The position numbers and the translations under genes were made by a program. Below, piece after piece: positions 6,591-63,969 of a DNA stretch of 64,000 bases; the stretch's first letter is position 1; every line of letters starts with the position of its first letter. Source of the stretch: Allocoleopsis franciscana PCC 7113 (GTDB taxonomy: Bacteria; Cyanobacteriota; Cyanobacteriia; Cyanobacteriales; Coleofasciculaceae); NCBI RefSeq assembly GCF_000317515.1, contig NC_019738.1, positions 1,745,623-1,809,622 of the forward strand, given 5' to 3'. The notes under the pieces are model-generated. The model searched no databases, had not been told where the DNA came from, and saw only the letters and a list, made by a program, of their open reading frames with translations.

Positions 6591-8321
6591 TCAACGGTTC
6601 AAAACTTGATCGGGTTGGTTGAAGATAAATTCCCTAGGAACTTTGGCTAAACTCCGCAAAGCACAGGAAACCCGATCAACACGATAGGAAGGAGGAGCAG
6701 AAACCAGCTTCTCAAAATACTCAGAATGTAAGGTGAAGCCAAAGTTAACTGTATCTGGCAGAGTCAGCTTGGCAATCGGGCCGTTCTTGAGGTTATCGGC
6801 AGCAAATAACCAGGCTTCCAGATGATTTTCGGCAAATACTTTCGTGAAAATATATCCCTTACCTTGAGGAATATATTGAATACTGTCGAGAAGACAGTGA
6901 TCGGGGAACACATAAAAATCCAGGAATTCATGCCCTAAGCTCGGTAACTCCCGCTCCGGATGTTCTTGTTGTTCTTTTTCCAACTGCTCGGTCAGCATTT
7001 TCCAATCTTCTGCTAGAGGAATGCGAGCTAAAACAGAAGGTAAATTGTGGGTGGGCAGTTTCTGATCAGTCAGGATACGGTTAGGATGATCCCGGAAAGC
7101 AAGGTACTGACGACGGCAGATAAAATCTCGCCAATACCCACTATAGCCTTGGTAAATTGCCGAATAACCTGAAGCGGTAAACTGCTCCCGTGGGTCAGCC
7201 GTATAGAGCATGGTGGAATACCATCCGGGATGGATAAACGCTTCTTCTTGAATGACTTGACCATCACCAATAACTACTTTACGTAGAACACCTGGGTCAA
7301 AACCAAACATCCAGGGAATGCCCCAATATTCCTCGCTGTAGGGTTTGCCCGTAAAGTGCATAACATCACAGGGTTCCAATGATTGAGTCAGGCTAATTGT
7401 TCCCTGTTGGACAGCCACCATCTGAATGTTTCCATCGTTATGGCGGTAGTTACAGAGGAAATGGTAGCTATCACCTGGAAAGGTAACCAGGCGTGCGGGA
7501 ACTTTATAGTTGGCGGCTGTTAAGTCTTTACGGTCTACGACATAGACCTGAGTATGAGGATAAGCATTGGTGGGTGGAACCTTAAGCCCCATGAGTGTGG
7601 TTAAGCCCATTTGGAAAGGCATATCGGGAATCATCGCGCATTCTTCGGTGAGGATGATGGTATGGGGGCTACCATCGAGTCGAGTTCCATCCAACTCCCA
7701 GTGCTTTAACGTGCCTTTACCGTCCCAAACGGTAATATAAACCTGGCTAATCATGTCATAAAACAATTGCCCTGGACGCGGCACACATTTCAATTCGCAG
7801 CTAATTAACTCACCCGTCTCTGGGTCGTAAAAAGGGTGAGCTGTATTTGCCACCATGGGGAAGAATGAGAGGGGAACACTGATGATATGTTCGTCAAAGT
7901 ATCCCACCGGCGTAATCGTTTCTAGGGTGACCGGATCGATTTCCCAGTAGCGTCCCGCATCGGCGGTGAGAAGCAGTCGCCCATTCATATTGACCACTCC
8001 AGTGTTTGCTGGCTCGGCAATACCAAAGAGACTCATTCTTGCCGGAAAAAAAGCTCGCTGCCGCCAAGTGAGGGGAAGCAAATCTTGCCAAAAACTATCC
8101 CAGGTATTAACTCGTTTGCACAGGAGTTTGACTTTCCCATTTTGTGGAGCCAGATCCCAACGGATAGTGACACCCGCACCCCCAAACAAATGACGTTCTC
8201 CAATTTGGTGATAGGGAGCCGCCACGAAAATATGACCCGATAGTTCCTGAGGCCAAGCTCCAGAGATGGTAGCTTCAAATTGACCAATGCTGGAACGAGT
8301 AAAATTTTGAACAGATACCAT
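6591..8321 (-). CDS. Carotenoid cleavage oxygenase (RPE65/CCD family; apocarotenoid oxygenase-like)
   Basis: Contains the family signature TAHPFYDPETGEL (cf. conserved AHPKxDPxTGEL), plus several conserved His and an N-terminal GHIFVAAPY block in the place of the GPG/NGP block. Length about 576 aa is compatible. Confidence 0.7.
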   Translation of the reverse strand: MVSVQNFTRSSIGQFEATISGAWPQELSGHIFVAAPYHQIGERHLFGGAGVTIRWDLAPQNGKVKLLCKRVNTWDSFWQDLLPLTWRQRAFFPARMSLFGIAEPANTGVVNMNGRLLLTADAGRYWEIDPVTLETITPVGYFDEHIISVPLSFFPMVANTAHPFYDPETGELISCELKCVPRPGQLFYDMISQVYITVWDGKGTLKHWELDGTRLDGSPHTIILTEECAMIPDMPFQMGLTTLMGLKVPPTNAYPHTQVYVVDRKDLTAANYKVPARLVTFPGDSYHFLCNYRHNDGNIQMVAVQQGTISLTQSLEPCDVMHFTGKPYSEEYWGIPWMFGFDPGVLRKVVIGDGQVIQEEAFIHPGWYSTMLYTADPREQFTASGYSAIYQGYSGYWRDFICRRQYLAFRDHPNRILTDQKLPTHNLPSVLARIPLAEDWKMLTEQLEKEQQEHPERELPSLGHEFLDFYVFPDHCLLDSIQYIPQGKGYIFTKVFAENHLEAWLFAADNLKNGPIAKLTLPDTVNFGFTLHSEYFEKLVSAPPSYRVDRVSCALRSLAKVPREFIFNQPDQVLNR

Positions 8322-8534
8322 AGCGATTTCTGACGAAGTGGATGCTTACGGCTGAGTTCGAGATTATTTTTGATTCTGATATGCTAACTTAGCCACTCTT
8401 GGCTGGCATCCCATGGTATCCGGCAATACAACCCTTATCGGTGGAGAGGCGAATAGTGAGGACTAAAGTCGTCTTGTGAGGGGCACTCTTTATGCCTACT
8501 ACGAACAGGGGTGCTCACTCCCTAATCGGCAGGG

Positions 8535-9860
8535 TTAAGAATTTAATTCCTGATCAACTGTCGAATTCCGATTAATGACCACTAACACCTTATCAACTCG
8601 ATTGCCGTCCATATCCATCACTTCCAACCGCATATCCCGCCACTCAAAGCAATCAGTCGCCTTGGGAATACGTCCTAACTGAGTAACAACAAAACCACCC
8701 ACGGTGTGATAGTTTCCTCGATGCTCTCCCAGCAACTCCTCAATGTTAAATAATTCAAAAAACTCCTCCACCGACAACATTCCATCCACCAACCATGAAC
8801 CATCCTCACGCTGTACCGCTTGAGGTTGATCACTGGTATCGACCGAAGGAATATCCCCAACAATCTCTTCTAAAATATCGTTGAGAGTTACCAAACCTTG
8901 AATCACACCATACTCATCAACAACGATCGCAATGTGAGTACTGCTTTGCTTGAACAACTCTAAAATTCGCAACCCAGGTGTGCTTTCTGGAACATAAACC
9001 GGGCGATGCAATGCACTCGTCAAGTCAAGGGGCTTATTCAATAGACAGTTGCTGAGCAAATCGTTGACATGGATGATGCCAAGGACATTATCCAGTTCCC
9101 CCTGGCAGACTAAATATCGAGAATGGGCGCTATCCATCATCACCTGCCGATTCGTTTCCGCTGAGTCGTCTAGATCAAGCCAGACAATTTCAGGGCGAGG
9201 CGTCATCAAAGCCCTCACTCGCCGATCGCCTAAACGAAACACCCGTTCCACCATATCTTGTTCGGCTTCCTCAAAGGTTCCCGCCTCAGTGCCTTGAGCG
9301 ATCAAAACCTTAACTTCTTCTTGGGTTACCAGGGGTTCTGTAGAGGGCGTGATGTTCAACAGCCGCATCATGAGCTCCGTGGAAAGACTCAACAACTGAA
9401 CGATGGGGTAAGTCAGTTTAGACAACATCTGCATCGGCATGGCGACAGCCGAGGCAATTTTTTCCGGGTTGTTTAACGCCAACCGCTTAGGCATCAGTTC
9501 GCCAATCACCAGCGTGAGATAAGTAATAATCAAAATCGCTGAGATCGAAGCGATCGCATCACTAAAGGGTGCCAGTGGAGGAACCCACTTTAACAAAGTC
9601 CCTACTCTCGCCGATATCACCGATTCACCAAAAGCACCGGATATGATTGCCAGAAGCGTTATTCCAATCTGAACGGTACCCAGAAACTGATTGGGGGAAT
9701 TCGCCAGTTGTAAGGCAATACCCGCTTGGATATTCCCCTGGTTGGCTATCTGTTGCAGGCGCACCTTCCGGACTGAGACAATCGCCATCTCTGACATCAC
9801 AAAGATGCCGTTAGCAACGATCAGTAGGAAAACAATTAGAATTTCCACAGGGAAAGACAA
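8535..9860 (-). CDS. HlyC/CorC family transporter (DUF21 membrane domain, tandem CBS, CorC_HlyC C-terminal domain)
   Basis: N-terminal four hydrophobic helices, central CBS-pair region (ILGIIHVNDLL, VVDEYGVIQGLVTLNDILEEIVGDI) and C-terminal transporter-associated domain are typical of the CNNM/CorC family. Confidence 0.85.
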   Translation of the reverse strand: MSFPVEILIVFLLIVANGIFVMSEMAIVSVRKVRLQQIANQGNIQAGIALQLANSPNQFLGTVQIGITLLAIISGAFGESVISARVGTLLKWVPPLAPFSDAIASISAILIITYLTLVIGELMPKRLALNNPEKIASAVAMPMQMLSKLTYPIVQLLSLSTELMMRLLNITPSTEPLVTQEEVKVLIAQGTEAGTFEEAEQDMVERVFRLGDRRVRALMTPRPEIVWLDLDDSAETNRQVMMDSAHSRYLVCQGELDNVLGIIHVNDLLSNCLLNKPLDLTSALHRPVYVPESTPGLRILELFKQSSTHIAIVVDEYGVIQGLVTLNDILEEIVGDIPSVDTSDQPQAVQREDGSWLVDGMLSVEEFFELFNIEELLGEHRGNYHTVGGFVVTQLGRIPKATDCFEWRDMRLEVMDMDGNRVDKVLVVINRNSTVDQELNS

Positions 9861-51022: not shown

Positions 51023-52888
51023 ATGGCTCAATTCTTCTTGGAAACGGCTTGGTTAATACCTTGCTATGCGTTGATGGGTTCGATTTTAGCGATACCTTGG
51101 TCTCCTAGCCTTATCCGTCGCACGGGACCTAGACCAGCAGGTTACATCAATGCATTAATGACCCTCGTCGCCTTCTTACACGGTTTAATTGCTTTATCGG
51201 CGACTTGGAATCAACCCGCACAAGAAATACTAATTCCTTGGCTTCAAGTGGTCGATCTCGATCTGACCATTCCCTTGGAATTTTCTTCGATTACCATTGG
51301 CGCGACTCTTGTCATTTCAGGAATAAACCTGCTGGCACAAATCTACGCTATTGGTTACATGGAAATGGATTGGGGTTGGGCACGCTTCTATTCGCTACTG
51401 GCATTATTTGAAGCTGGGATGTGTGCGCTTGTCCTCTGCAACTCGTTGTTTTTCAGCTACATTATTCTGGAAGTCCTCACCCTCGGAACTTACCTCTTAG
51501 TCGGGTTTTGGTTCAATCAGTCTTTAGTGGTTACAGGTGCTAGAGATGCATTCTTAACCAAGCGGGTGGGCGATTTATTTCTGCTGATGGGGGTTATTGC
51601 TCTCTATCCCTTGGCAGGAACCTGGAATTTTTCGGAACTCGCCGAATGGGCAAGTACGGCGAACGTAGACCCAAAAGTTGCGGCGCTATTAGGTTTGGCT
51701 TTAATTGCAGGACCGATGGGCAAATGTGCCCAGTTTCCTCTCCATCTGTGGCTGGATTTAGCAATGGAAGGACCAGTTCCCAGCACGATTTTGCGGAACG
51801 CAGTGGTTGTCTGCACCGGTGCTTGGGTACTCATTAAGCTTGAACCCATTATCGCGCTTTCTCCCTTGGCGGCATCAGCCACATTAATTATTGGTGCCGT
51901 GACAGCGTTGGGCGGTACGATGGTTGCGATCGCGCAAATTGACATCAAACGCACCCTTTCCTATCTGGTTAGCGCTTACATGGGTTTGGTGTTTATTGCC
52001 GTCGGCACTGGACAGAGCGAAACGGCCCTAACATTAATGTTGACCTACGCCGTATCAATGGCTCTGCTGGTCATGAGCATCGGTGGTATTGTCTGGAACA
52101 GCATCACCCAAGATGTTACTAAGTTAGGGGGGCTATGGGCTAAAAGACCAGCTTCGGCATTCTCCTACCTCGTCGGTGCTGCTGGCTTAGTGGCGGTACC
52201 TCCTCTAGGTGGTTTCTTTGCTCTATTGCAAGTAGGCGACCATCTTTCTAGCACTTACCCCTGGTTTCTGGGATTATTGCTACTGGTGAATGGTCTAGCG
52301 ACCTTTAGCTTAACCCGTGTATTCGGCTTAGTGTTTGGCGGCAAACCCAAGCCAATGAGTGAGCGATCGCCCGAAGTTCACTGGCCGATGGCGTTACCCA
52401 TGTTGCTCTTAATGGGCTTTACCCTCCACGTTCCGCTCATCCTCCTGCAATGGCAACTGATACCAGACTGGTCAACCTTGAATACAACGGTTGCTGGCCT
52501 GCTAGTTTTGTCTAGTGCAGTGGGTTGTACTCTTGGGTCATTCATTTATCTCAACAACGGCTTTGCCAAACCCGTGCGCTTTGGCAACAAATCCCTGCAA
52601 GACCTCTTTGCCTACGACTTTTACACCCAGAAGGTTTACCGCTTAACCATTGTATTTGTGGTTGACCTAGTCTCCAGAGCTATTTCCTGGGCTGACCGCT
52701 ATATCGTTGACGGTGTGGTCAATTTAGTAGGGATATTAACCGTATTCAGCGGACAGAGCTTAAAGTACAACGTTTCCGGTCAGACCCAGTTTTATGCCCT
52801 AACGATTCTATTTGGAATAGTGTTGTTTGGAATTGTCGTGAGCTGGCCTTTGTTGGCTCGTCTGTCGCTGATCGTTAATGGCTTTTGA
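51023..52888 (+). CDS. ndhF3: NAD(P)H-quinone oxidoreductase subunit F, CO2-uptake type (NdhF3)
   Basis: MAQFFLETAWLIPCYALMGS... polytopic NuoL/NdhF antiporter-like protein of 621 aa, heading an ndhD3-cupA operon. Confidence 0.8.
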   Translation: MAQFFLETAWLIPCYALMGSILAIPWSPSLIRRTGPRPAGYINALMTLVAFLHGLIALSATWNQPAQEILIPWLQVVDLDLTIPLEFSSITIGATLVISGINLLAQIYAIGYMEMDWGWARFYSLLALFEAGMCALVLCNSLFFSYIILEVLTLGTYLLVGFWFNQSLVVTGARDAFLTKRVGDLFLLMGVIALYPLAGTWNFSELAEWASTANVDPKVAALLGLALIAGPMGKCAQFPLHLWLDLAMEGPVPSTILRNAVVVCTGAWVLIKLEPIIALSPLAASATLIIGAVTALGGTMVAIAQIDIKRTLSYLVSAYMGLVFIAVGTGQSETALTLMLTYAVSMALLVMSIGGIVWNSITQDVTKLGGLWAKRPASAFSYLVGAAGLVAVPPLGGFFALLQVGDHLSSTYPWFLGLLLLVNGLATFSLTRVFGLVFGGKPKPMSERSPEVHWPMALPMLLLMGFTLHVPLILLQWQLIPDWSTLNTTVAGLLVLSSAVGCTLGSFIYLNNGFAKPVRFGNKSLQDLFAYDFYTQKVYRLTIVFVVDLVSRAISWADRYIVDGVVNLVGILTVFSGQSLKYNVSGQTQFYALTILFGIVLFGIVVSWPLLARLSLIVNGF

Positions 52889-52975
52889 AACTCGTTTTGG
52901 TCATGAGTCATTAGTGAATCGTTAATGGCAACTACTAACTACTAACAGCTAACAACGAAAAACAAACAAGAATCT

Positions 52976-54493
52976 ATGCTGAGTACCTTGATTTGGCTAC
53001 CCTTATTAGGAGCTGCAATAATTGGGTTTTTCCCAGGAAATGCAGCGGGGACGCGGATACGTTCTATCGCAATTGCGATCGCCGCCGCTATCTTATTGGT
53101 TACGATTTGGCTTGGTTTTCAGTTTGATATAACCAATTCAGGAATGCAGTTTCAAGAATCTTTGCCCTGGATTCCCCAAATTGGCTTAACCTATAAACTG
53201 GGCGTTGATGGGTTATCCTTTCCCTTACTAGCTCTTAGCAATTTGCTGACATTAATCGTCATCTTTAGCGGTCGGATTGAGCTCGATCGTTCTCGCCTCA
53301 AATACGCTCTAATTCTGCTCGTTAATGCTGGTGTTGCCGGAGCGTTTCTCGCCCAGAATTTACTGCTGTTTCTCCTGTTCTACGAAGTAATCTTAATTCC
53401 CCTCTACCTATTAATTGCAATTTGGGGAGGTGAGAAGCGGGAATATGCAGCGATGAAGTTTCTCATCTATACAGCAGTATCCGGGATTCTGATTCTGGGT
53501 GCATTCTTGGGGATAACGTGGCTTTCCCACTCCACCAGTTTCGACTATGGCGCAATTAACACGCAAGGATTATCCTTAACGGTTCAGCTCATTCTCTTAA
53601 CCGCGATTTTGGTGGGATTTGGGATCAAAATTCCACTGGTTCCCTTGCATACCTGGATGCCAGATGCTTATGTTGAAGCTTCTCCAGTGGTAGCGATTAT
53701 TTTAGGTGGCATGGTTGCTAAGTTGGGAACTTATGGTTTGGTAAGGTTTGGCTTGCAGCTATTTCCCGAAACTTGGGCACTTGTGGCTCCGGGACTATCG
53801 ATTATTGGCGTAATCAGCGTAATGTATGGGGCACTGAGTGCGATCTCGCAAAAAGACATCAAGCGCATGGTCGCTTATAGCTCCATCGGTCACATGGGCT
53901 ATATCGTTGTCGCCGCTGCCGCACTTACGCCATTAAGCCTCTTGGGTGCTGTTTCCCAGATGGTGAGTCACGGTTTAATCCTGGCAATTTTGTTTTATTT
54001 GGTTGGTATTATCGAAGCCAAAGTTGGCACCCGCGACTTGGATGTTCTCAATGGTTTGATGAATCCCACGCGAGGTTTACCCTTAGTCAGCGCCCTCCTC
54101 ATTTTAAGTGGAATGGCTAGCGCCGGAATTCCTGGTTTAGTGGGTTTTGTCGCTGAATTTATGGTGTTCCAAGGCAGTTATCTGGCTTTCCCTTGGCAAA
54201 CGCTGTTGTGTATTTTTGCCTCTGGCTTAACTGCCGTTTACTTCGTGATTTTGCTAAACCGCACCTGCTTTGGCAAACTCGACAACAAAACATCGTACTA
54301 TCCCAAAGTCCTGTTCCCTGAAAAAGCCCCTGCTTTCGTTTTAGCCGCCCTCATCTTGTTACTAGGAATACAACCGACTTGGTTAGTGCGCTGGATGGAG
54401 CCGACTACCACAGCAATTATTGCTGCGGCTTCAACTGGAAATAATCAGCAACTAGCGCTCAACTCTCAGCCAAACGTGGCAACAAACAAATAG
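52976..54493 (+). CDS. ndhD3: NAD(P)H-quinone oxidoreductase subunit D, CO2-uptake type (NdhD3)
   Basis: NuoM/NdhD-like 505-aa membrane protein (WLPDAYVEASPV, KRMVAYSSIGHMG) between ndhF3 and cupA. Confidence 0.8.
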   Translation: MLSTLIWLPLLGAAIIGFFPGNAAGTRIRSIAIAIAAAILLVTIWLGFQFDITNSGMQFQESLPWIPQIGLTYKLGVDGLSFPLLALSNLLTLIVIFSGRIELDRSRLKYALILLVNAGVAGAFLAQNLLLFLLFYEVILIPLYLLIAIWGGEKREYAAMKFLIYTAVSGILILGAFLGITWLSHSTSFDYGAINTQGLSLTVQLILLTAILVGFGIKIPLVPLHTWMPDAYVEASPVVAIILGGMVAKLGTYGLVRFGLQLFPETWALVAPGLSIIGVISVMYGALSAISQKDIKRMVAYSSIGHMGYIVVAAAALTPLSLLGAVSQMVSHGLILAILFYLVGIIEAKVGTRDLDVLNGLMNPTRGLPLVSALLILSGMASAGIPGLVGFVAEFMVFQGSYLAFPWQTLLCIFASGLTAVYFVILLNRTCFGKLDNKTSYYPKVLFPEKAPAFVLAALILLLGIQPTWLVRWMEPTTTAIIAAASTGNNQQLALNSQPNVATNK

Positions 54494-54764: not shown

Positions 54765-56105
54765 ATGACTACAACTCTAGATAAATCTACGGCCAGTGAA
54801 CCAACTAAACCTAAATTACCCCCTTCTAAGCACGAATTTGCTGATGTCATTCACCGCCTAGAAGCAGGTGGTGCCATGATACCGGATACGCCAGAGAATC
54901 TCATGCAAATTATCGGCATTTGGAAGGCGTATGCTGTACCGATGGATTTTTACTGGCGCGACTTGCTTTATATAGGGGAACGTGTCTTTTTAGATCCCCT
55001 TCCCTTCTTTAAATACTTCCTACCCAAAGAGTATTTAGAACTGCACAATCATTACGCTGGCGATGATGCAGACTTGCGAATTTGGCGGGGAGAAGCCACT
55101 GCTCATCCCGAACTTTTGGAGTTTATCGAGAAGGGTGAAACAGGCAAAATGCCCAAGTTGCTCCATCACTTGTGGCATGACCGGATTAATATGGAGTTCG
55201 CTGAAGCTTGTATGCGGGCGATGCTTTGGCATCGGAATATGTATGCGCCAGTGAATCAATTTGACCCCTACTTAGATTCGGAAGAATACAAAGCCAACGC
55301 AGATAGAGCAATTAAGGCTTACTTTAAGGGCAATCCAGTGATGCTGGGACTCCATAAGATGTTCCCAGAGATGTTTTTGGAGCAGTGCCGTCAGGCGTCT
55401 TATTACAGTAACTTAGGGCTATTCTGGGAAGTGATGGCTCCGGTTTTCTTTGAAGTTTCCGACCTTTATGATGAGGGGAAAATTACAACAGTTCCGGAGG
55501 CGATGAACTTTTTGGTAAATGGAATTTTTGCGATCGCCGGTCGTCCCATTTACCACCACGTCTACATCCGGGGTGAATGCTACGAAATTATCCCCAAATC
55601 GAAGGGCTTCACCTGGTTGTATGAAGCCGCACTTCCTTACGTTGAAGCTGTTTTTTATCGCACTGCACCATTTAGGGGAACGAAATCTTATAATGCTCAA
55701 GCTGGAGAAGTTCCGGACGATCAGAAAGACTTCCACTATGGGGTTCTCTACGCCGATAAATTCCCGGTTGGTACGGCGGGTATTCCTCCCACATTACTGA
55801 TGCAGGATATGCTGCATTTCCTACCTCCTTATCTCAAGGAATTTTATGCCAAGCGTTGTCGGGATGAGGATGATATTTTAAATCAAATTGCGGTAACGTT
55901 CCAGCGATCGATGTACTGTGTTACCTCTGCGGTATTCCAAGCGTTGCGGACGGCGTTGCTTTATCCGTTAGATGACCCAAATCCGAAGCATTTGCAAGCC
56001 AATCGGGCGTTTTTTGAGGCGCAATTGGATCGGTTCTGTCGTCCGGAGTATGGGATGCGGAATGCGGCGCGTTTAGGGGCTATTCAGACGGCGGATTATC
56101 GGTAG
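54765..56105 (+). CDS. cupA: CO2 hydration protein CupA/ChpY
   Basis: 446 aa with HRLEAGGAMIPDTPENLMQIIGIWKAYAVP...WHDRINMEFAEACMRAM, typical of the ChpY/CupA family. Position after ndhF3-ndhD3. Confidence 0.85.
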   Translation: MTTTLDKSTASEPTKPKLPPSKHEFADVIHRLEAGGAMIPDTPENLMQIIGIWKAYAVPMDFYWRDLLYIGERVFLDPLPFFKYFLPKEYLELHNHYAGDDADLRIWRGEATAHPELLEFIEKGETGKMPKLLHHLWHDRINMEFAEACMRAMLWHRNMYAPVNQFDPYLDSEEYKANADRAIKAYFKGNPVMLGLHKMFPEMFLEQCRQASYYSNLGLFWEVMAPVFFEVSDLYDEGKITTVPEAMNFLVNGIFAIAGRPIYHHVYIRGECYEIIPKSKGFTWLYEAALPYVEAVFYRTAPFRGTKSYNAQAGEVPDDQKDFHYGVLYADKFPVGTAGIPPTLLMQDMLHFLPPYLKEFYAKRCRDEDDILNQIAVTFQRSMYCVTSAVFQALRTALLYPLDDPNPKHLQANRAFFEAQLDRFCRPEYGMRNAARLGAIQTADYR

Positions 56106-56650: not shown

Positions 56651-57478
56651 TCAATTCAGCATTTCAGCATCAATTCCCAAAGCTTGAAGTTGTTCCGGAG
56701 TGAGCGATTTAAGCCGCTGTGCCAACTGCTGCCGCTTTTGCTGCTCTTGCTCTAACTGTTGCAAGGCTTGCTCTTTCTCCTGGCGCTCAATATCTACTTG
56801 CTCATGTCCCGTTAACAACAAATTTCCATCTAAGTCCCACCAACGCAACCAGAGTTGTTCTGGGTTATTCAAGAAGATTCCCCGCCACACTCCCAACTCT
56901 ACTTGCATCGGAGTAATGGAATAGTGTCCCCGCTCATTGGGAGTCATCCTCTCATAGGAGGTATTAACCAAGTGATACATCTCCAGAGTGCCGTGGCTAA
57001 CTATATAGATGCCATAGTAAGGAATTCGCATCACCCGCTCGTAGACCCAAAACTTACCCGGTTTTGTGACTTCTCCCATTTCAGAGCGAGATAACGGAGT
57101 TCTATCTCGTTCCTCACTGCCATCACCAGAGGCAAACTCTAAGGCAATGGTAGGTGTAATGTACTCTCGCCACAGCACATAGGAGCGGCGAATTACACCA
57201 TCTAATCGAGGTGGCACATTCGGCACATAAAACCAGTCAGGTGCCTCTGCTCCTTTCTCCGGTGGTTCAGTCTCTCGCCAGTAAATACCGCAATCTTGTC
57301 CAATGCAATATTGTCCATCTGGATGCAGTCGTTGCAAGGTGGAATTGATTGAATCCGTCAGAATCAGGCTTTGGGGATGCTCCTGAAAATTTTTCACGAA
57401 ACTACCATCGGATTCTGGCAACTGAGTATGGTCGGGGAATGGAGGTGGTAGAGCAATTTCATTTAGTATCTCAGTCAT
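56651..57478 (-). CDS. Uma2-family (DUF820) endonuclease with C-terminal coiled-coil extension
   Basis: N-terminal ...SDGSFVKNFQEHPQSLILTDSINSTLQRL... and the PD-(D/E)xK-like core IALEFASGD; C-terminal Q/E-rich coiled coil ending LGIDAEMLN. Homologous to the fragments at 48417-48641 and 63574-63969. Confidence 0.7.
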   Translation of the reverse strand: MTEILNEIALPPPFPDHTQLPESDGSFVKNFQEHPQSLILTDSINSTLQRLHPDGQYCIGQDCGIYWRETEPPEKGAEAPDWFYVPNVPPRLDGVIRRSYVLWREYITPTIALEFASGDGSEERDRTPLSRSEMGEVTKPGKFWVYERVMRIPYYGIYIVSHGTLEMYHLVNTSYERMTPNERGHYSITPMQVELGVWRGIFLNNPEQLWLRWWDLDGNLLLTGHEQVDIERQEKEQALQQLEQEQQKRQQLAQRLKSLTPEQLQALGIDAEMLN

Positions 57479-58304: not shown

Positions 58305-59258
58305 TTAGCAATTAGAGAGCGTTTCTAACGCTAACAAGCCAGCCCCATAGGCAGGTTCGTAACGAGGAGAAACTATCTTTACCCCAGGCTTGTGGGTGAC
58401 AAAAGCTGCTTCAAATTGCTCACGCATTAAAGAAAAACCCTGCCATACACTTCCTGTTGTCACCACTTCAACAATGTCGGAAGGGCTAAAAAGGCTATCA
58501 ACAACTACTTGTGTAGCTTTGACTAATTCTTTAACAGCCTCTTCAATAATACCAAGGGCAACCGCGTCTCCTGAGGTCGCTTCTTGAGCCACAATCGGTG
58601 CTAACGCCGCTATGTCTTTAACACTCCACCCTGGCTGATAGATGACATTGACTAACTCTTCTAAACTCGATAAACCGAGATGCTGTTTAAATCGCTCTTG
58701 AAGAGTGGTGGCAGCATCGCATCCATCATAAGCTTTCAGTGCCGATCGCAAACCCGAAATAGCAAGATGATAAGCGCCGCCAGCGTCTCCTAAAAGATGC
58801 CCCCAGCCTCCTACTCGCTTGGTACATCCGGTTGAATTTCGCCCAAAAATAATGGAACCGGTGCCTGCGATCGCAACTACTCCGACACAATGACCCAGTC
58901 CTCCCACTAAGGCAATCAACGCATCGTTCCCAATTACAATCGTTGAGGGTCGCAAAGCCCAAGTGATAGGAAGTGAGTCGCTCAACTGTAACTGTTGTAC
59001 GAAAGTCTCAACGACTTGGATATCGGCGGGGCGATCGACACCGGCTACTCCCAAACAAATGGCTTCAACTGGGACAGCCTGGAAGCTAGCCGTTGCCTGA
59101 GTAATAGCCGATTCAATGGAACACAAAGCCGCTGACTTACCGACACTCTGATAATTAGACGCACCCGCTTCACCCCGTCCCAGCACTTGACCGGTATCGT
59201 TCATGAGGACACAAACTGTTTTGGTTCCTCCCCCATCAATGCCTAACACCAAGCTCAT
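58305..59258 (-). CDS. BadF/BadG/BcrA/BcrD-type ATPase (N-acetylglucosamine kinase-like)
   Basis: LVLGIDGGGTKTVCVL (phosphate-1) and AGTGSI (phosphate-2) motifs of the ASKHA sugar-kinase fold. 317 aa. Confidence 0.75.
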   Translation of the reverse strand: MSLVLGIDGGGTKTVCVLMNDTGQVLGRGEAGASNYQSVGKSAALCSIESAITQATASFQAVPVEAICLGVAGVDRPADIQVVETFVQQLQLSDSLPITWALRPSTIVIGNDALIALVGGLGHCVGVVAIAGTGSIIFGRNSTGCTKRVGGWGHLLGDAGGAYHLAISGLRSALKAYDGCDAATTLQERFKQHLGLSSLEELVNVIYQPGWSVKDIAALAPIVAQEATSGDAVALGIIEEAVKELVKATQVVVDSLFSPSDIVEVVTTGSVWQGFSLMREQFEAAFVTHKPGVKIVSPRYEPAYGAGLLALETLSNC

Positions 59259-59596: not shown

Positions 59597-60580
59597 TTGA
59601 TGCAAAAATCATTGTTCGTTGGCTGTCTCGTTCTGCTTATGGCTGGATGCGCCCAAAAGCCTCCCTCTACAACCACCAGTGCTGAAAGTCCGTCCAAGAG
59701 TGCACAGCTTTCCCAGGAGTCCGCCAAAACCCCTGCCGCTGCACAAAGTAACGTCGAACTGATTAATGCCGGAACTGAACCTAAGCAGCAACTGCGTTTC
59801 ACACCTGGGGCGAACACCAAGCAAACGCTACAAATGACTATGGATATGGACATGGCAATGTCTGTAGGAGGGCAAACTCAGCCAGCCTTTGATAGTCCAC
59901 CCATTAAGATGACGATGGAGTCGGAAGTCACAAAAGTGGATGCTAACGGGGATATTCACACAGATTTTTCCTATTCGGATGCAGATGTTGTTGCGGCTAA
60001 GAATACCCCACCTGAACTGGTTAACGCGATGCGATCGCAAGTTAAAAAGCTGGTTGGCTTACGCGGTTCTATGATTGTCGATAACCAGGGAAACACGAAA
60101 CAGGCAAACTTTAATACGCCTGAGACACTCGACCCCAACACGAAAAAAATGGTTGAGCAAATGGTGACTTCCCTCAAGCAACTTTCCTCACCCGTTCCCT
60201 CAGAAGCCGTTGGAGTGGGTGCCAAGTGGAAGATTCCGAACTCGGTTACGGCTAATGGCATGACGATGAATCAGAGTTCCACCTATGAGTTAGTTGATTT
60301 AAAGGATAATGTCGCCTCCTTGCAAGTGAGCATGGAACAGCAGGCAGGAGAACAAAAAATCAACCCACAAGGTTTACCTCCTGGTGCTTCTATTGACCTC
60401 AAATCCATGAATTCTCAAGGCAATGGGAAGCTCAAGTTGGCGTTGAATAAAGTCATGCCCGTTAGTTCCACCATGTCCATGCGTTCTAAGTCACAGATGA
60501 GTGTGAAAGACCCGAACAGTGAAAAATCCACAGCAATGGATATGAATGTATCGGTTGAGATGGCTCTCGAATCTAAGTGA
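59597..60580 (+). CDS. Hypothetical lipoprotein
   Basis: Lipobox LLMAGC after a hydrophobic leader. Ser/Thr/Met-rich mature protein with no recognisable domain. 90 bp upstream of the caspase-like gene. Confidence 0.5.
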   Translation: MMQKSLFVGCLVLLMAGCAQKPPSTTTSAESPSKSAQLSQESAKTPAAAQSNVELINAGTEPKQQLRFTPGANTKQTLQMTMDMDMAMSVGGQTQPAFDSPPIKMTMESEVTKVDANGDIHTDFSYSDADVVAAKNTPPELVNAMRSQVKKLVGLRGSMIVDNQGNTKQANFNTPETLDPNTKKMVEQMVTSLKQLSSPVPSEAVGVGAKWKIPNSVTANGMTMNQSSTYELVDLKDNVASLQVSMEQQAGEQKINPQGLPPGASIDLKSMNSQGNGKLKLALNKVMPVSSTMSMRSKSQMSVKDPNSEKSTAMDMNVSVEMALESK

Positions 60581-60670
60581 TGAGGATGCATTGAGTTTTA
60601 GGGTAGGGGTGCATGGCTGTGCGCCCTTACAGAAGTTTTCTCTTCAAAATACACCCTTTAAAATTAAACA

Positions 60671-61732
60671 GTGGAACACAATCAACAGGATTGGGAACCA
60701 GAGAAAACATGGATTTTTGCGGTAGGAATTCTCGAATGGGAATATGGAGAAACCTGGGCACCTTTCCCAGATGCGGTGGAAGGTCGGTTTGATGAAAAAC
60801 TCGTCGATTTCTTCTATTCTAAGGGAGTTCCAGAGGAACAAATCGTTTACTTGCAAGATGGAGAGGCGACTTTAGATCAGATTCAAGAAAGCTTGACTGA
60901 ACTGTTGTCGAATACCAACGAAGATGACTTATTTATTTTGTATTTTGCGGGTCACGGAGATTGGGATTCTGAATCAGGTGAACATTATTTTATCAATTAC
61001 GATGCCAACCCCGACGACCGAGATAACTATTGGTCTATTCCTTCAATTTATGACGACATTGAGAGCAATTTCAATGGCTCTAAAGTGTTGCTTTTGGCGG
61101 ATTGTTGCTTTTCTGGGGGGTTGATTGATGAACTGAAAAAGCGAGAGACAGACCTTGCTTATGCTTGTGTGACTTCAGCTTATTCTCATAACAGTTCAAC
61201 GGGTGAGTGGACGTTCACAGAGGCTTTATACAAGGGTTTGTTGGGCGATCCAGTGGTTGATTTAGATGGCGATCATATCGTGACGCTCTATGATTTTGCT
61301 CGATATGCTGAATTGGAAATGGCTTTTATCGAGGAACAAAAATCGATGTTTCTCACCACCCATGATTTTGACCCGCAGATGCAGTTAGCCAGTGTGTCAG
61401 ATGAGATTGAACCCATAGAGGGAAAGCGGGTAGAGGTTGAGTACGAAGAAGAATGGTATAAAGCGAAGACTCTGGAACGAAATAATGGTGAAACTTTAAT
61501 TCAGTATCTTGGCTATGATCAGGAACAAGAATGGGTGGACGAGGAGCGAATTCGTCCCTACAAACCGGAAATGTTTGGCATTGGTGAAGCGGTAGAGGTG
61601 GAATATGGAGAAGAATGGTATTCTGCCACTGTAAAAAAGGCTTGGTATGGCCTCCACTGTGTCAGTTATGATGATTTTTCGGAAGAGTGGGATGAATGGG
61701 TAGGGAGCGATCGCATCCGAGAACCCCAATAG
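60671..61732 (+). CDS. Caspase-family (peptidase C14/orthocaspase-like) domain fused to two C-terminal Tudor/Agenet-like repeats
   Basis: Catalytic dyad context LFILYFAGHGD (His) and VLLLADCCFSGG (Cys). The C-terminus has two copies of a motif of about 50 aa: KRVEVEYEEEWYKAKTL...IQYLGYDQEQEWVDEERIRPYK and EAVEVEYGEEWYSATVKK...VSYDDFSEEWDEWVGSDRIREPQ. Confidence 0.65.
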   Translation: MEHNQQDWEPEKTWIFAVGILEWEYGETWAPFPDAVEGRFDEKLVDFFYSKGVPEEQIVYLQDGEATLDQIQESLTELLSNTNEDDLFILYFAGHGDWDSESGEHYFINYDANPDDRDNYWSIPSIYDDIESNFNGSKVLLLADCCFSGGLIDELKKRETDLAYACVTSAYSHNSSTGEWTFTEALYKGLLGDPVVDLDGDHIVTLYDFARYAELEMAFIEEQKSMFLTTHDFDPQMQLASVSDEIEPIEGKRVEVEYEEEWYKAKTLERNNGETLIQYLGYDQEQEWVDEERIRPYKPEMFGIGEAVEVEYGEEWYSATVKKAWYGLHCVSYDDFSEEWDEWVGSDRIREPQ

Positions 61733-61790
61733 TTTTGCACAGCCAAGCTACCACTGCTGAAAAATGGAATATTTTCGGATTTTGTTAAAG

Positions 61791-63573
61791 CCCACATTCC
61801 GCCCTTTGACTGTCACAAGTAGATAATTTAGTGGAGGCAATCGAGGCAAACGCAACGTAAGTGGAGTTAAAGATAGCCTAGCCAGCTTTTTGGCCGAAAC
61901 AGGATAATTGAACGGGAGTGGAAGGGCTAAGTCTTGGGGAGGGGGTGTGAAAGCAGCAGAAATGCAGGTAATGAACCTCGACCACTTGGGTCTGGTGGCA
62001 GGTATTATTGACGAAATCGGGCTGGTGGAACAAATAGACCTGCGGTTGGGGCAAGACAGCCGAGGAAAAGTCAGTGCAGGTCTTGTGGTCAAAGCAATGA
62101 TTCTCAACGGACTGGGCTTTGTGTCAGCCCCACTGTACTTATTTAGTCGATTTTTTGAAGGGAAAGCTACAGAACACCTGATTGGAACCGGAGTCAAGCC
62201 AGAACATCTCAATGATGACCGCCTGGGACGAGTGCTTGATGAACTGTTCCTGGCAGGACTAACCCGTTGCTTCGTCAGCATTGCCATGAAAGCTATCGCC
62301 AAGTTTGGAGTGAGTATTGAGACAGCGCACTTAGACTCGACCTCATTTCATCTGCATGGCGAGTATGAAACAGCCAATGACGAAGTGGTAGTCACTCAAA
62401 AGACAGAAGATGGCACAAGAGTAGAAATTGAGGTAGCGCCGAAAGCGATTCACCTAACGTATGGATATTCTCGTGACCATAGAAGTGACCTCAAACAATT
62501 CGTGATGAATCTGATATGTGGTGGAGAGGGTGGTATACCGTTATTTTTAGAGATGGCAGATGGCAATCAAGACGACAAGACAAAGTTTGCCCATCTGTTT
62601 GAGGAGTTTCAGAAACAGTGGACTTTTGAGGGAATACACATAGCAGATAGTGCTTTGTACACTGCCGACAACCTCAAGCGGATGAAGCAGTTGAAATATC
62701 ACACCCTAGAAGCAGTAGAAATCATTGAGCAAGACCATTACTCCCAACCGGGAAGACCAGCAAAGCAAACTCGACCCACTCACAAAACCTATCACATTCA
62801 AGCCACATTGGTAGTCAATGAAACTGTCCTAGAACAACAAAGACAGCAAGCGGGACGATTCATTCTCGCCACCAATGTCCTAGACAAGGAACAATTGAAT
62901 AATGATGCAGTCCTGAGTGAGTACAAAGAGCAGCAGAGTACGGAACGGGGCTTTAGCTTTCTCAAAGACCCTCTGTTTTTTGCTGATAGTGTTTTCCTGA
63001 AAGACCCAGGTCGCATTGCTGCTGTAGGGATGGTTATGGGATTGTGTCTGTTGGTCTACAACTTGGGACAGGCAGCTTTACGTCAAGCCTTAGTTCAAGC
63101 TGATGAAAGCCTCCCTAATCAATTAAAAAAGCCGACTCAGCGTCCCACCCTCCGCTGGATATTTCAGTGTTTCCAAGCGGTGCATTTGTTAGTGATTGAT
63201 GGGGTTGAGCAAATTGCCAATCTTACCGATGAACGCTTAAAGATTTTGCGCTTTTTCTCTCAAGCTTGCCGGGACTACTATCTATTGTGCTGAGTTCTTC
63301 AAGTCATTGAAATACTTCAACAATTATTTCAGCAAAGTGATGCGTAGACGAGCTTTTTAGTTAACGCATCAGGCTTTTCCTGATAGGAAACAGTTCACTT
63401 TATGTTGCCAGTTACTTGACTTTTTATTGCTACTTGCTGCTTTTTGAGAACAAGCACCCGAAAAAAGTTAGCATCTCTCATCTCTAGAACGTTTCACTCG
63501 ATTGAACTGGCCTGTGTTAGCCTTCAGTTCCACACAATTATCCGCTTGTGACAGTCAAAGGGCGGAATGTGGG
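61791..63573 (+). mobile_element. Intact IS1634-like (IS4 superfamily) insertion sequence with 29-bp perfect terminal inverted repeats and 6-bp TTAAAG target-site duplication
   Basis: Left IR cccacattccgccctttgactgtcacaag (61791-61819); right IR cttgtgacagtcaaagggcggaatgtggg (63545-63573). ttaaag directly flanks both ends (61785-61790 and 63574-63579). A single transposase ORF lies inside. Confidence 0.8.
61908..63293 (+). CDS. IS1634/IS4-family DDE transposase
   Basis: 461 aa. N-terminal MNLDHLGLVAGIIDEIGLVEQIDLRL is typical of IS1634-family transposases. It sits between the terminal inverted repeats. Confidence 0.8.
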   Translation: MNGSGRAKSWGGGVKAAEMQVMNLDHLGLVAGIIDEIGLVEQIDLRLGQDSRGKVSAGLVVKAMILNGLGFVSAPLYLFSRFFEGKATEHLIGTGVKPEHLNDDRLGRVLDELFLAGLTRCFVSIAMKAIAKFGVSIETAHLDSTSFHLHGEYETANDEVVVTQKTEDGTRVEIEVAPKAIHLTYGYSRDHRSDLKQFVMNLICGGEGGIPLFLEMADGNQDDKTKFAHLFEEFQKQWTFEGIHIADSALYTADNLKRMKQLKYHTLEAVEIIEQDHYSQPGRPAKQTRPTHKTYHIQATLVVNETVLEQQRQQAGRFILATNVLDKEQLNNDAVLSEYKEQQSTERGFSFLKDPLFFADSVFLKDPGRIAAVGMVMGLCLLVYNLGQAALRQALVQADESLPNQLKKPTQRPTLRWIFQCFQAVHLLVIDGVEQIANLTDERLKILRFFSQACRDYYLLC

Positions 63574-63969
63574 TTAAAGGGTATCTGGGTCGATATTCAA
63601 CTCCCGTAGTTTCGCGGCTAATCGCTCAGCCCGTTGTGTTTCCTGTTCAGCCCGTTGTGTTTCCTGTTCAGCTCGTTGTGTTTCCTGTTCAGCTCGTTGT
63701 GTTGCCTGTTCAGCCCGTTGTATTTCTTGTTCGGCTACTTCTTCCGGTGTGGGAACTAGCTCACCTTCTGCGGTGAAAAAGCGTAATTGTCTTTGATGAA
63801 TTCCCAAATATAACTGTAGTTGTTGACTCCACAACAATCCTTGAGAATTAGGTTCTAGCGATTGGTATTCACCATCTAATAAATGGAATCCCTCAAATTC
63901 TAAGCTGTCCGGGTCAAACCAAAAGTAATCCGGTGTGCGAAATGTATCTTGATATATTTGCTTTTTCAA
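63574..63969 (-). CDS. C-terminal part of an Uma2-family-like protein with (QRAEQET)n repeats; probably 5'-partial because the N-terminus runs off the window
   Basis: RTPDYFWFDPDSLEFEGFHLLDGEYQSLEPN aligns with RIPYYGIYIVSHGTLEMYHLVNTSYERMTPN of the 56651-57478 product, and both end in L(G/N)IDxxxL. The stop codon lies inside the IS target duplication. Confidence 0.5.
   Translation of the reverse strand: MKKQIYQDTFRTPDYFWFDPDSLEFEGFHLLDGEYQSLEPNSQGLLWSQQLQLYLGIHQRQLRFFTAEGELVPTPEEVAEQEIQRAEQATQRAEQETQRAEQETQRAEQETQRAERLAAKLRELNIDPDTL

Follow-up and report, generated by a model that had tools for sequence, protein, structure and literature searches.

The DNA analysed here is a 64,000-nucleotide stretch of Allocoleopsis franciscana PCC 7113 (the window, to which all position numbers refer), and the gene under study, whose product has 353 residues and sets the residue numbering, encodes a C14-type peptidase followed by tandem Tudor/chromo-like SH3 barrels. 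It is a stand-alone gene without a conserved partner gene. We propose, with roughly even confidence, that the protein acts as a stand-alone clan-CD Cys-His endopeptidase, probably cytoplasmic, in which the pair of barrels would serve as a targeting or substrate-recognition module for a cationic, possibly methylated, peptide. Proteins of this architecture were described in 2018; judging from the sequences, what goes beyond that description is a leaderless, very acidic cyanobacterial clade in which the full aromatic cage is shifted from barrel 1 to barrel 2.

The motifs LYFAGHGD (with His95) and ADCCFSGG (with Cys145-Cys146) can be read directly in the product. In Pfam, Peptidase_C14 (PF00656) matched residues 66-190 at 29.1 bits, above its curated cut-off of 21.4, and Agenet (PF05641) matched two stretches at 34.5 bits, the best of them at residues 251-299, above a curated cut-off of 27; Tudor_4, Tudor-knot, SAWADEE and the MORC2 chromo-like domain matched the C-terminal region more weakly. 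Two repeats make up the final ~105 residues and share 43% identity over 46 positions (E 8e-10). Of the 247 homologues that a protein search returned at E<=1e-3, nearly all have this pair of Pfam domains, and an architecture shared by so many homologues places the feature far beyond chance. No paralogue of the gene was found within the 64-kb window. The initial annotation, made from the letters alone, had called a C14-type Cys/His peptidase joined to two C-terminal Tudor/Agenet/chromo-like SH3 barrels, and both halves of this call held: the Pfam scores exceed their cut-offs, the catalytic Cys and His align with those of metacaspase-4 and are invariant, and the C-terminal region is modelled as barrels that carry an aromatic cage, not as some other fold.

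The catalytic residues were placed by comparison with proteins of known structure. A phmmer search of the PDB paired FAGHG and DCCFSGG with YSGHG and DSCHSGG of Arabidopsis metacaspase-4 (AtMC4; E 4.6e-6), and chain 6w8r, a C-to-A mutant of the same enzyme, aligned at the position of Cys146; on the strength of this alignment we assign His95 and Cys146 as the dyad. When the PDB was searched with a family profile metacaspase-4 was recovered at E 5.1e-10, and metacaspases-4 and -9 were among the sequence and profile matches. A full-length AlphaFold2 (AF2) model built from a 105-sequence alignment reached a predicted local distance difference test score (pLDDT) of 92.7 and a predicted template modelling score (pTM) of 0.91. 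For the N-terminal part of this model, Foldseek returned only enzymes of the caspase-haemoglobinase fold from the PDB, with MALT1 paracaspase (E 1.4e-10), the Candida and yeast metacaspases (7qp1 and 4f6o; template modelling score ~0.64 on the target), Geobacter GSU0716 and legumain all at a probability of 1.00. Across 105 homologues, down to 45% identity, H95, C146, D144, G94 and G96 never change and C145 hardly does; this invariance argues that the protease is under selection as a catalyst. The N-terminal part is thus confidently modelled as a caspase fold, with a D-x-C-x-S-G motif of the metacaspase type and an invariant dyad of His95 and Cys146.

Both C-terminal repeats are five-stranded SH3-type beta-barrels in the AF2 models, which is the fold of the Royal family. 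The UHRF1 tandem Tudor, RBBP1, PHF20L1 and EAF3 are the closest structures to them, with dozens of methyl-Lys/methyl-Arg readers coming next, and by sequence the family profile matched MRG2 (7.2e-6), MRG701 (1.7e-5), MRG15 (2.9e-5), PHF20L1 (6.5e-5) and the tandem Agenet of FMRP (3.6e-4) in the PDB; the chromo barrel of EAF3 was also among the sequence and profile matches. Alignment to MRG701 and EAF3 served to transfer to our protein the five positions that form the cage in MRG-type chromo barrels. All five are aromatic in barrel 2 (Y312, Y317, Y333, F336 and W340), where they pair with the H/Y/Y/W/W positions of MRG701; in barrel 1 positions 1-4 are aromatic (Y258, Y263, Y279 and Y282) and position 5 is lost. 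Among 50 sequences of the cyanobacterial clade, positions 2-5 of barrel 2 (Y317, Y333, F/Y336 and W340) are kept in 42-50, and barrel 1 has a loop that is 1-2 residues shorter, lacks cage positions 4 and 5 in 44 and retains three of the five positions in most. Other lineages have a barrel 1 with the full loop (Y-x-x-[YF]-x-x-S-W-D-E-W) and often have Ser/Thr at position 5 of barrel 2. A full cage is always retained in at least one barrel, which is barrel 1 in the exported forms and barrel 2 in the cyanobacterial forms.

The barrels also occur outside this fusion. An exhaustive HMMER search with the barrels alone recovered 705 cluster representatives, and the best 150 of these included 139 with Agenet, 136 with Tudor-knot and 46 with Peptidase_C14 matches, together with a few that carry EF-hands or ankyrin repeats and many stand-alone tandem barrels. 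Because the same module stands alone or is fused to unrelated domains elsewhere, we regard the barrels as a portable binding module. In the confident single model of the whole protein they are docked on the catalytic domain, and the pTM falls to 0.66 when the barrels are modelled alone.

The window protein has seven residues before a conserved Trp8, and an N-terminal signal peptide is excluded, because the reading frame is closed by TAA codons at 60659 and 60665, just ahead of the GTG start at 60671. We also considered a longer N-terminus or a hidden signal peptide in this gene, and the in-frame stops rule these out as well. Most cyanobacterial loci and two Chloroflexota groups likewise have 2-11 residues before Trp8. 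For the large majority of loci in the cyanobacterial clade, in our numbering of the related loci, these are 2-7 residues in L002, L006, L011-L014, L017, L019-L022 and L024-L027 (L025 excepted), and 10-11 in L025 and L034. Since it is shared by most loci of the clade and by a separate Chloroflexota clade, the short N-terminus looks like a fixed trait and not like a mis-called start. Nearly all of the non-cyanobacterial lineages have hydrophobic (Sec or lipoprotein) leaders, and those of the Planctomycetota, Acidobacteriota, Verrucomicrobiota, Chitinophagaceae and Ignavibacteria homologues are 20-50 residues long, with a lipobox in some. One Phormidiaceae branch carries a Tat-like MSKLSRRKFTQ leader; in the Phormidiaceae-type loci L016 and L018 this Tat-like leader reads MSKLSRRKFTQLILQFAAAAG...AKSWAA and includes SRRKF, while sister cyanobacterial proteins are leaderless, so that export status varies within one cyanobacterial clade. 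In a rough neighbour-joining tree, which carries no support values, the leaderless cyanobacterial clade branches from among sequences that have leaders.

The two kinds of protein differ in charge as well. In the window protein barrel 1 has a net charge of -5, and the catalytic domain and barrel 2 are more negative still (Table 1); the mean charge of the catalytic domain is -32 in the cyanobacterial clade versus -14 in the exported forms. Such acidic barrels and domains would favour cationic ligands and disfavour nucleic acid.

With one genome taken for each species, a scan gave at least 332 relatives in about eight phyla. The carriers are cyanobacteria, Chloroflexota, Planctomycetota, Acidobacteriota, Verrucomicrobiota, Myxococcota and other delta-proteobacteria, Chitinophagaceae, Ignavibacteria and a Sericytochromatia metagenome-assembled genome (MAG), and the closest among the relatives listed, at 92%, comes from a Stenomitos MAG. 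Aligned over its full length with planctomycete members that have signal peptides, the window protein shows 45-50% identity, and some homologues are already labelled by NCBI/UniRef as 'agenet domain-containing protein', 'caspase family protein', 'Tudor domain-containing protein' or 'Tudor-knot domain-containing protein'. Kaur, Iyer, Subramanian and Aravind (2018, Sci Rep 8:6196; PMC5906684) placed the caspase fusion among the commonest bacterial chromo-like architectures and named planctomycetes, cyanobacteria, bacteroidetes and chloroflexi as the lineages that have it. The remark in the initial annotation that such a fusion is uncommon in a bacterium therefore has to be withdrawn; with this many species-level genomes and the 2018 publication, the fusion is neither rare nor new. 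The same authors predicted that these proteins are secreted enzymes whose barrels bind methyl-lysine-like moieties of murein or matrix peptides by means of the cage (PMC5906684). A signal peptide, which they give as a feature of the class, is present in the Planctomycetota, Acidobacteriota, Chitinophagaceae and Ignavibacteria homologues and absent from the window protein, which shares the architecture of the published class but, by its sequence, would lack its secretion feature.

We found no later or experimental work on the caspase-chromo-like fusion in the literature searched. The main text of a survey of 473 cyanobacterial orthocaspases, as distinct from its supplementary domain table, mentions no Tudor, Agenet or SH3 accessory domains, and in two orthocaspase reviews the word 'Tudor' occurs only within 'Tudor staphylococcal nuclease'.

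In the function that we propose, the enzyme would be active as a Cys-His endopeptidase, and the intact, acidic cage of barrel 2 would grip a cationic side chain of a peptide, either Lys/Arg, which may be methylated, or a different ammonium group, quaternary or primary. Capture by the cage would bring the target to the active site for cleavage, and in this organism the reaction would take place in the cytoplasm. In the homologues with Sec, lipobox or Tat leaders, which come from Planctomycetota, Acidobacteriota, Bacteroidota, Ignavibacteria and a few cyanobacteria, the equivalent reaction would take place in the envelope or the extracellular space, in line with what Kaur et al. 2018 envisaged (PMC5906684). 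Several points weigh against this proposal. The activity, specificity and ligand of the family are all inferred, and the Peptidase_C14 score is a modest 29 bits, for which reason the P1 specificity cannot be read from the sequence. Position 1 of the barrel-2 cage is variable within the cyanobacterial clade, and the barrels, docked as they are in the model, could equally be autoinhibitory. No candidate methylated substrate or methyltransferase was found near the gene among the flanking open reading frames (ORFs) of 85 loci. Moreover, a missing recognisable leader is no proof of cytoplasmic residence, and the published generalisation is that these proteins are 'consistently secreted' (PMC5906684).

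A bolder version of the proposal, which we put forward as a speculation and think unlikely, is that the leaderless hyper-acidic cyanobacterial (and Chloroflexota) clade constitutes a cytoplasmic 'reader-protease', the complete aromatic cage of which would read a methylated or cationic Lys/Arg mark on an intracellular protein and direct its cleavage. If true, a prokaryote would here be reading out protein methylation by proteolysis, with a system descended from exported envelope enzymes, and the clade would serve as a living model for the origin of the eukaryotic readers of methyl marks.

Table 1. Features of the caspase-Tudor gene and of the lipoprotein gene upstream of it
Feature	Position in window	Strand	Basis and remarks
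Caspase-like peptidase with two Tudor/chromo-like barrels, whole gene	60671..61732	+	GTG start, stop included, 353 aa; ORF list, Pfam, 247 homologues, AF2
Predicted caspase-haemoglobinase-fold peptidase domain, residues ~8-235	60692..61375	+	Foldseek, profile vs PDB; net charge -37
Putative catalytic His95 codon (FAGHG)	60953..60955	+	Aligned with the His of AtMC4 YSGHG; 105/105 homologues
Putative catalytic Cys146 codon (second Cys of DCCFSGG)	61106..61108	+	Aligned with the catalytic Cys of AtMC4 DSCHSGG; 105/105
Tudor/chromo-like barrel 1, residues 251-299	61421..61567	+	Five strands in AF2 models; Pfam Agenet; cage loop shortened
Tudor/chromo-like barrel 2, residues 303-351	61577..61723	+	All five cage positions aromatic; net charge -9
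Two in-frame TAA stops (60659-61, 60665-67), one and three codons before the GTG	60659..60667	+	Translation and sequence
DUF6263 lipoprotein-like gene	59597..60580	+	Lipobox LMAGC; DUF6263 32.8 bits; 90 bp before caspase gene

The lipoprotein ORF 90 bp upstream exists as first described, as does the caspase ORF itself, and the initial annotation had offered the two genes as possible partners. We searched 90 related loci and their 2,591 flanking ORFs with the DUF6263 protein by tblastn and phmmer. A homologue lies near the caspase gene in 3 of 85 non-redundant loci (L011, L056 and L012, from MAGs whose caspase-Tudor protein is 86-92% identical) and in an identical Logan contig, and was not found near it in the remaining loci of the 85. 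In L012 it lies 1.5 kb downstream of the caspase gene, with a kinase gene between them. L013 and L014, where that protein is 86-87% identical, have no DUF6263 gene nearby and have a HEAT-repeat protein upstream instead, and the unannotated 309-residue upstream neighbour in Cylindrospermum is unrelated to the lipoprotein. The gene pair is therefore not conserved, and we rejected the lipoprotein as a partner because the pairing is limited to three closely related genomes and is lost already at 86-87% identity.

All-against-all clustering of the 2,591 ORFs that lie within 6 kb of the gene in the 85 loci revealed no family-wide conserved neighbour, only promiscuous families (ABC ATPases, histidine kinases, kinases and DUF1501-like proteins) or lineage-local synteny, and any conserved partner gene was rejected after this clustering. 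The neighbourhoods in Cylindrospermum, Desertifilum, Aerosakkonema, another cyanobacterium and a planctomycete have nothing in common. A promoter and terminator scan between 59300 and 62000 was uninformative on co-transcription, since the number of sites did not exceed that of shuffled sequence and none lay in the gap of 90 bp. Among close relatives the block of homology is the ORF itself (window 60663-61733) and ends within a few bases of it, so the gene moves as a single unit. When the window is compared with L012, L013 and L014, it is as if the caspase-Tudor gene had been shifted like a cassette. The gene order is kinase, lipoprotein, caspase, Uma2 in the window and caspase, kinase, lipoprotein, Uma2 in L012.

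The published prediction for this architecture, cyanobacteria included (PMC5906684), offers a different account, in which the window protein would be an exported envelope or matrix peptidase, its barrels would fix the protease on murein or matrix peptides by a methyl-lysine-like or basic group of these, and its export route would be invisible in the sequence. This agrees with the Sec or lipoprotein leaders of nearly all non-cyanobacterial homologues, with the Tat-like SRRKF leader of one cyanobacterial sub-branch (L016 and L018) and with the fact that the next gene upstream in the window encodes a lipoprotein. However, the adjacency of the lipoprotein gene is not conserved, the in-frame stops leave the window gene no space for a leader, and the short N-terminus is common to most loci of the clade and to the separate Chloroflexota clade. 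The difference in charge from the exported forms (about -32 versus -14) and the rearranged cages also suggest adaptation to another compartment or ligand, and we consider export of the window protein improbable. A little less probable to us is a role in which the barrels read no peptides at all. They could be structural or autoinhibitory lids, or they could bind some other polymer such as nucleic acid, polysaccharide or polyamine, with the aromatic residues serving the fold. The higher pTM of the full-length model than of the barrels alone (0.91 versus 0.66) indicates tight docking on the catalytic domain and would fit a lid, as would the loss of barrel-1 cage positions in 44 of the 50 clade members, and some Royal-family and SH3-fold domains do bind DNA or RNA (PMC5906684, introduction). 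Yet the negative charge of the barrels (-5 and -9) speaks against nucleic-acid binding, the conserved aromatics are the cage positions and not merely the core, and at least one barrel always has a complete cage. The tandem module is also found alone or with unrelated domains, as for an autonomous binding unit.

The initial annotation had further suggested that the protein is a ligand-gated cell-death or defence effector. In such an antiviral or cell-death system the barrels would sense a modified peptide or small molecule and thereby switch on the caspase, which would kill or arrest the cell, perhaps acting with the lipoprotein. Caspase-fold proteases serve as effectors in several bacterial defence systems, and the surroundings of the gene are mobile or variable (Uma2 and IS1634 in the window, toxin-antitoxin genes in Cylindrospermum), with a position that shifts between close relatives. 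PADLOC has a 'caspase' model, and when run on the caspase-Tudor protein and four neighbours it matched this generic model only, at 27 bits; the best NCBIfam match is to the EACC1-associated type of caspase (caspase_w_EACC1), but at 48 bits against a cut-off of 140. No sensor NTPase, TIR, CHAT, gasdermin or EACC1 partner accompanies the gene, the 85 loci have no conserved neighbour, the pairing with the lipoprotein is confined to three near-identical genomes, and no full-length relative was found in the viral contigs and plasmids searched. An intracellular suicide switch is also a poor fit because most homologues carry export signals. Since the context checks were negative, both the lipoprotein partnership and the defence role are left unsupported, and we regard a defence effector as very improbable.

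Comparison with known enzymes helps to place the endopeptidase that we favour. Like the metacaspases and orthocaspases (MEROPS C14B; for example Arabidopsis MC4 6w8s, yeast Yca1 4f6o and Microcystis MaOC1), the window protein has the caspase-haemoglobinase fold and the His-Gly and D-x-C-x-S-G motifs, and like many cyanobacterial orthocaspases it is a single-chain bacterial enzyme with an accessory C-terminal domain. It differs from them in its weak sequence similarity (29 bits to Pfam C14 and ~15% identity in structural alignments) and in the Cys-Cys doublet at its active site. The MALT1 paracaspase (3uo8 and 7ak0) gave the best Foldseek matches to the full-length model (E 1e-10) and also combines a caspase domain with a small packed beta-domain, but its C-terminal domain is Ig-like and not Tudor-like, identity is 12-15% and the full-length root-mean-square deviation is high, so the likeness is an analogy of layout only. 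In contrast to the eukaryotic readers that its barrels resemble (MRG15 2f5k, MRG701 5in1, EAF3 3e9g, PHF20L1 6l0x and the FMRP tandem Agenet 4qw2), the window protein is bacterial, fused to a protease and without a chromatin context, and the cage loop of its barrel 1 is shortened.

In the bacterial SH3b-targeted cell-wall hydrolases, which are extracellular enzymes, a small SH3-fold barrel docks the hydrolase onto a specific peptide epitope. We propose that a barrel-docked hydrolase is the working principle of the caspase-Tudor protein too, and a parallel between chromo-like barrels and these hydrolases has been drawn before (PMC5906684). The SH3b domains, however, belong to a different SH3 superfamily without an aromatic cage, and they act outside the cell, whereas the window protein is apparently cytoplasmic. 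The proteins of Kaur et al. 2018 (PMC5906684) are the nearest in kind, having a caspase-like peptidase followed by tandem chromo/Tudor-like SH3 barrels, conserved cage aromatics and the same lineages; but they were described as consistently secreted, while the window protein and most of its clade are leaderless, far more acidic and equipped with the full cage in barrel 2 instead of barrel 1. The function given for them in that study is itself a prediction.

It has been proposed that the eukaryotic methyl-lysine/methyl-arginine readers descend from bacterial chromo/Tudor-like domains, and we found no determined ligand for any of these bacterial domains in the literature searched. The caspase-Tudor family is a practical entry point for this question because its members are small, soluble, confidently modelled and fused to an assayable enzyme. 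A natural comparison is offered by the exported and the leaderless clades, which have their intact cage in different barrels, and the leaderless hyper-acidic clade with its complete cage would be a convenient system for learning what a bacterial Tudor-like domain reads. For genome annotation, the gene is best entered as a stand-alone protease of known architecture, and not as part of a two-gene lipoprotein module or of an identifiable defence system.

Several observations concern the lipoprotein gene and the surrounding DNA. The C-terminal half of the DUF6263 protein is Met-rich, and in close relatives its gene accompanies the BadF-like kinase gene at 58305..59258 (-) and not the caspase gene. 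In L056, an Allocoleopsis MAG, two tandem DUF6263 paralogues (7638-8648 and 8836-9816, respectively 60% and 82% identical to the window lipoprotein) lie upstream of the caspase-Tudor gene. In Cylindrospermum stagnale PCC 7417 (L002, 4758-9635) the orthologue Cylst_3944 lies amid toxin-antitoxin genes (ParE/PhdYeFM and PIN) and an AAA_15/AAA_21 ATPase gene, in what looks like a variable island that is not common to other genomes.

Relative to L011, L013 and L014, the window has an insertion of ~1.78 kb at 61791-63571, which begins 58 bp past the caspase stop and lies before a Uma2-family gene. It carries an IS1634-family transposase ORF at 61908..63293 (+), with DUF4277 and DDE domains and an NCBIfam score of 310 bits, and the overlapping alignment ends at this insertion (L011 4909-4916) hint at a short target duplication. 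Two genes of the Uma2 family (putative restriction-endonuclease-like), at 63574..63969 (-) and 56651..57478 (-), flank the region. The first of these is called at only 131 residues, versus 252 in L014, and its tail carries a seven-residue repeat, (QRAEQET)n, whose copy number differs between relatives and which reads as PVVFPVQ repeats on the opposite strand. Further upstream, 54765..56105 (+) encodes a ChpXY CO2-hydration protein (Pfam 542 bits) preceded by large ORFs on the same strand at 51023..54493, and together these look like a cyanobacterial CO2-uptake NDH-1 cluster. The nearest DNA is that of a Stenomitos MAG, at ~92-96% identity.

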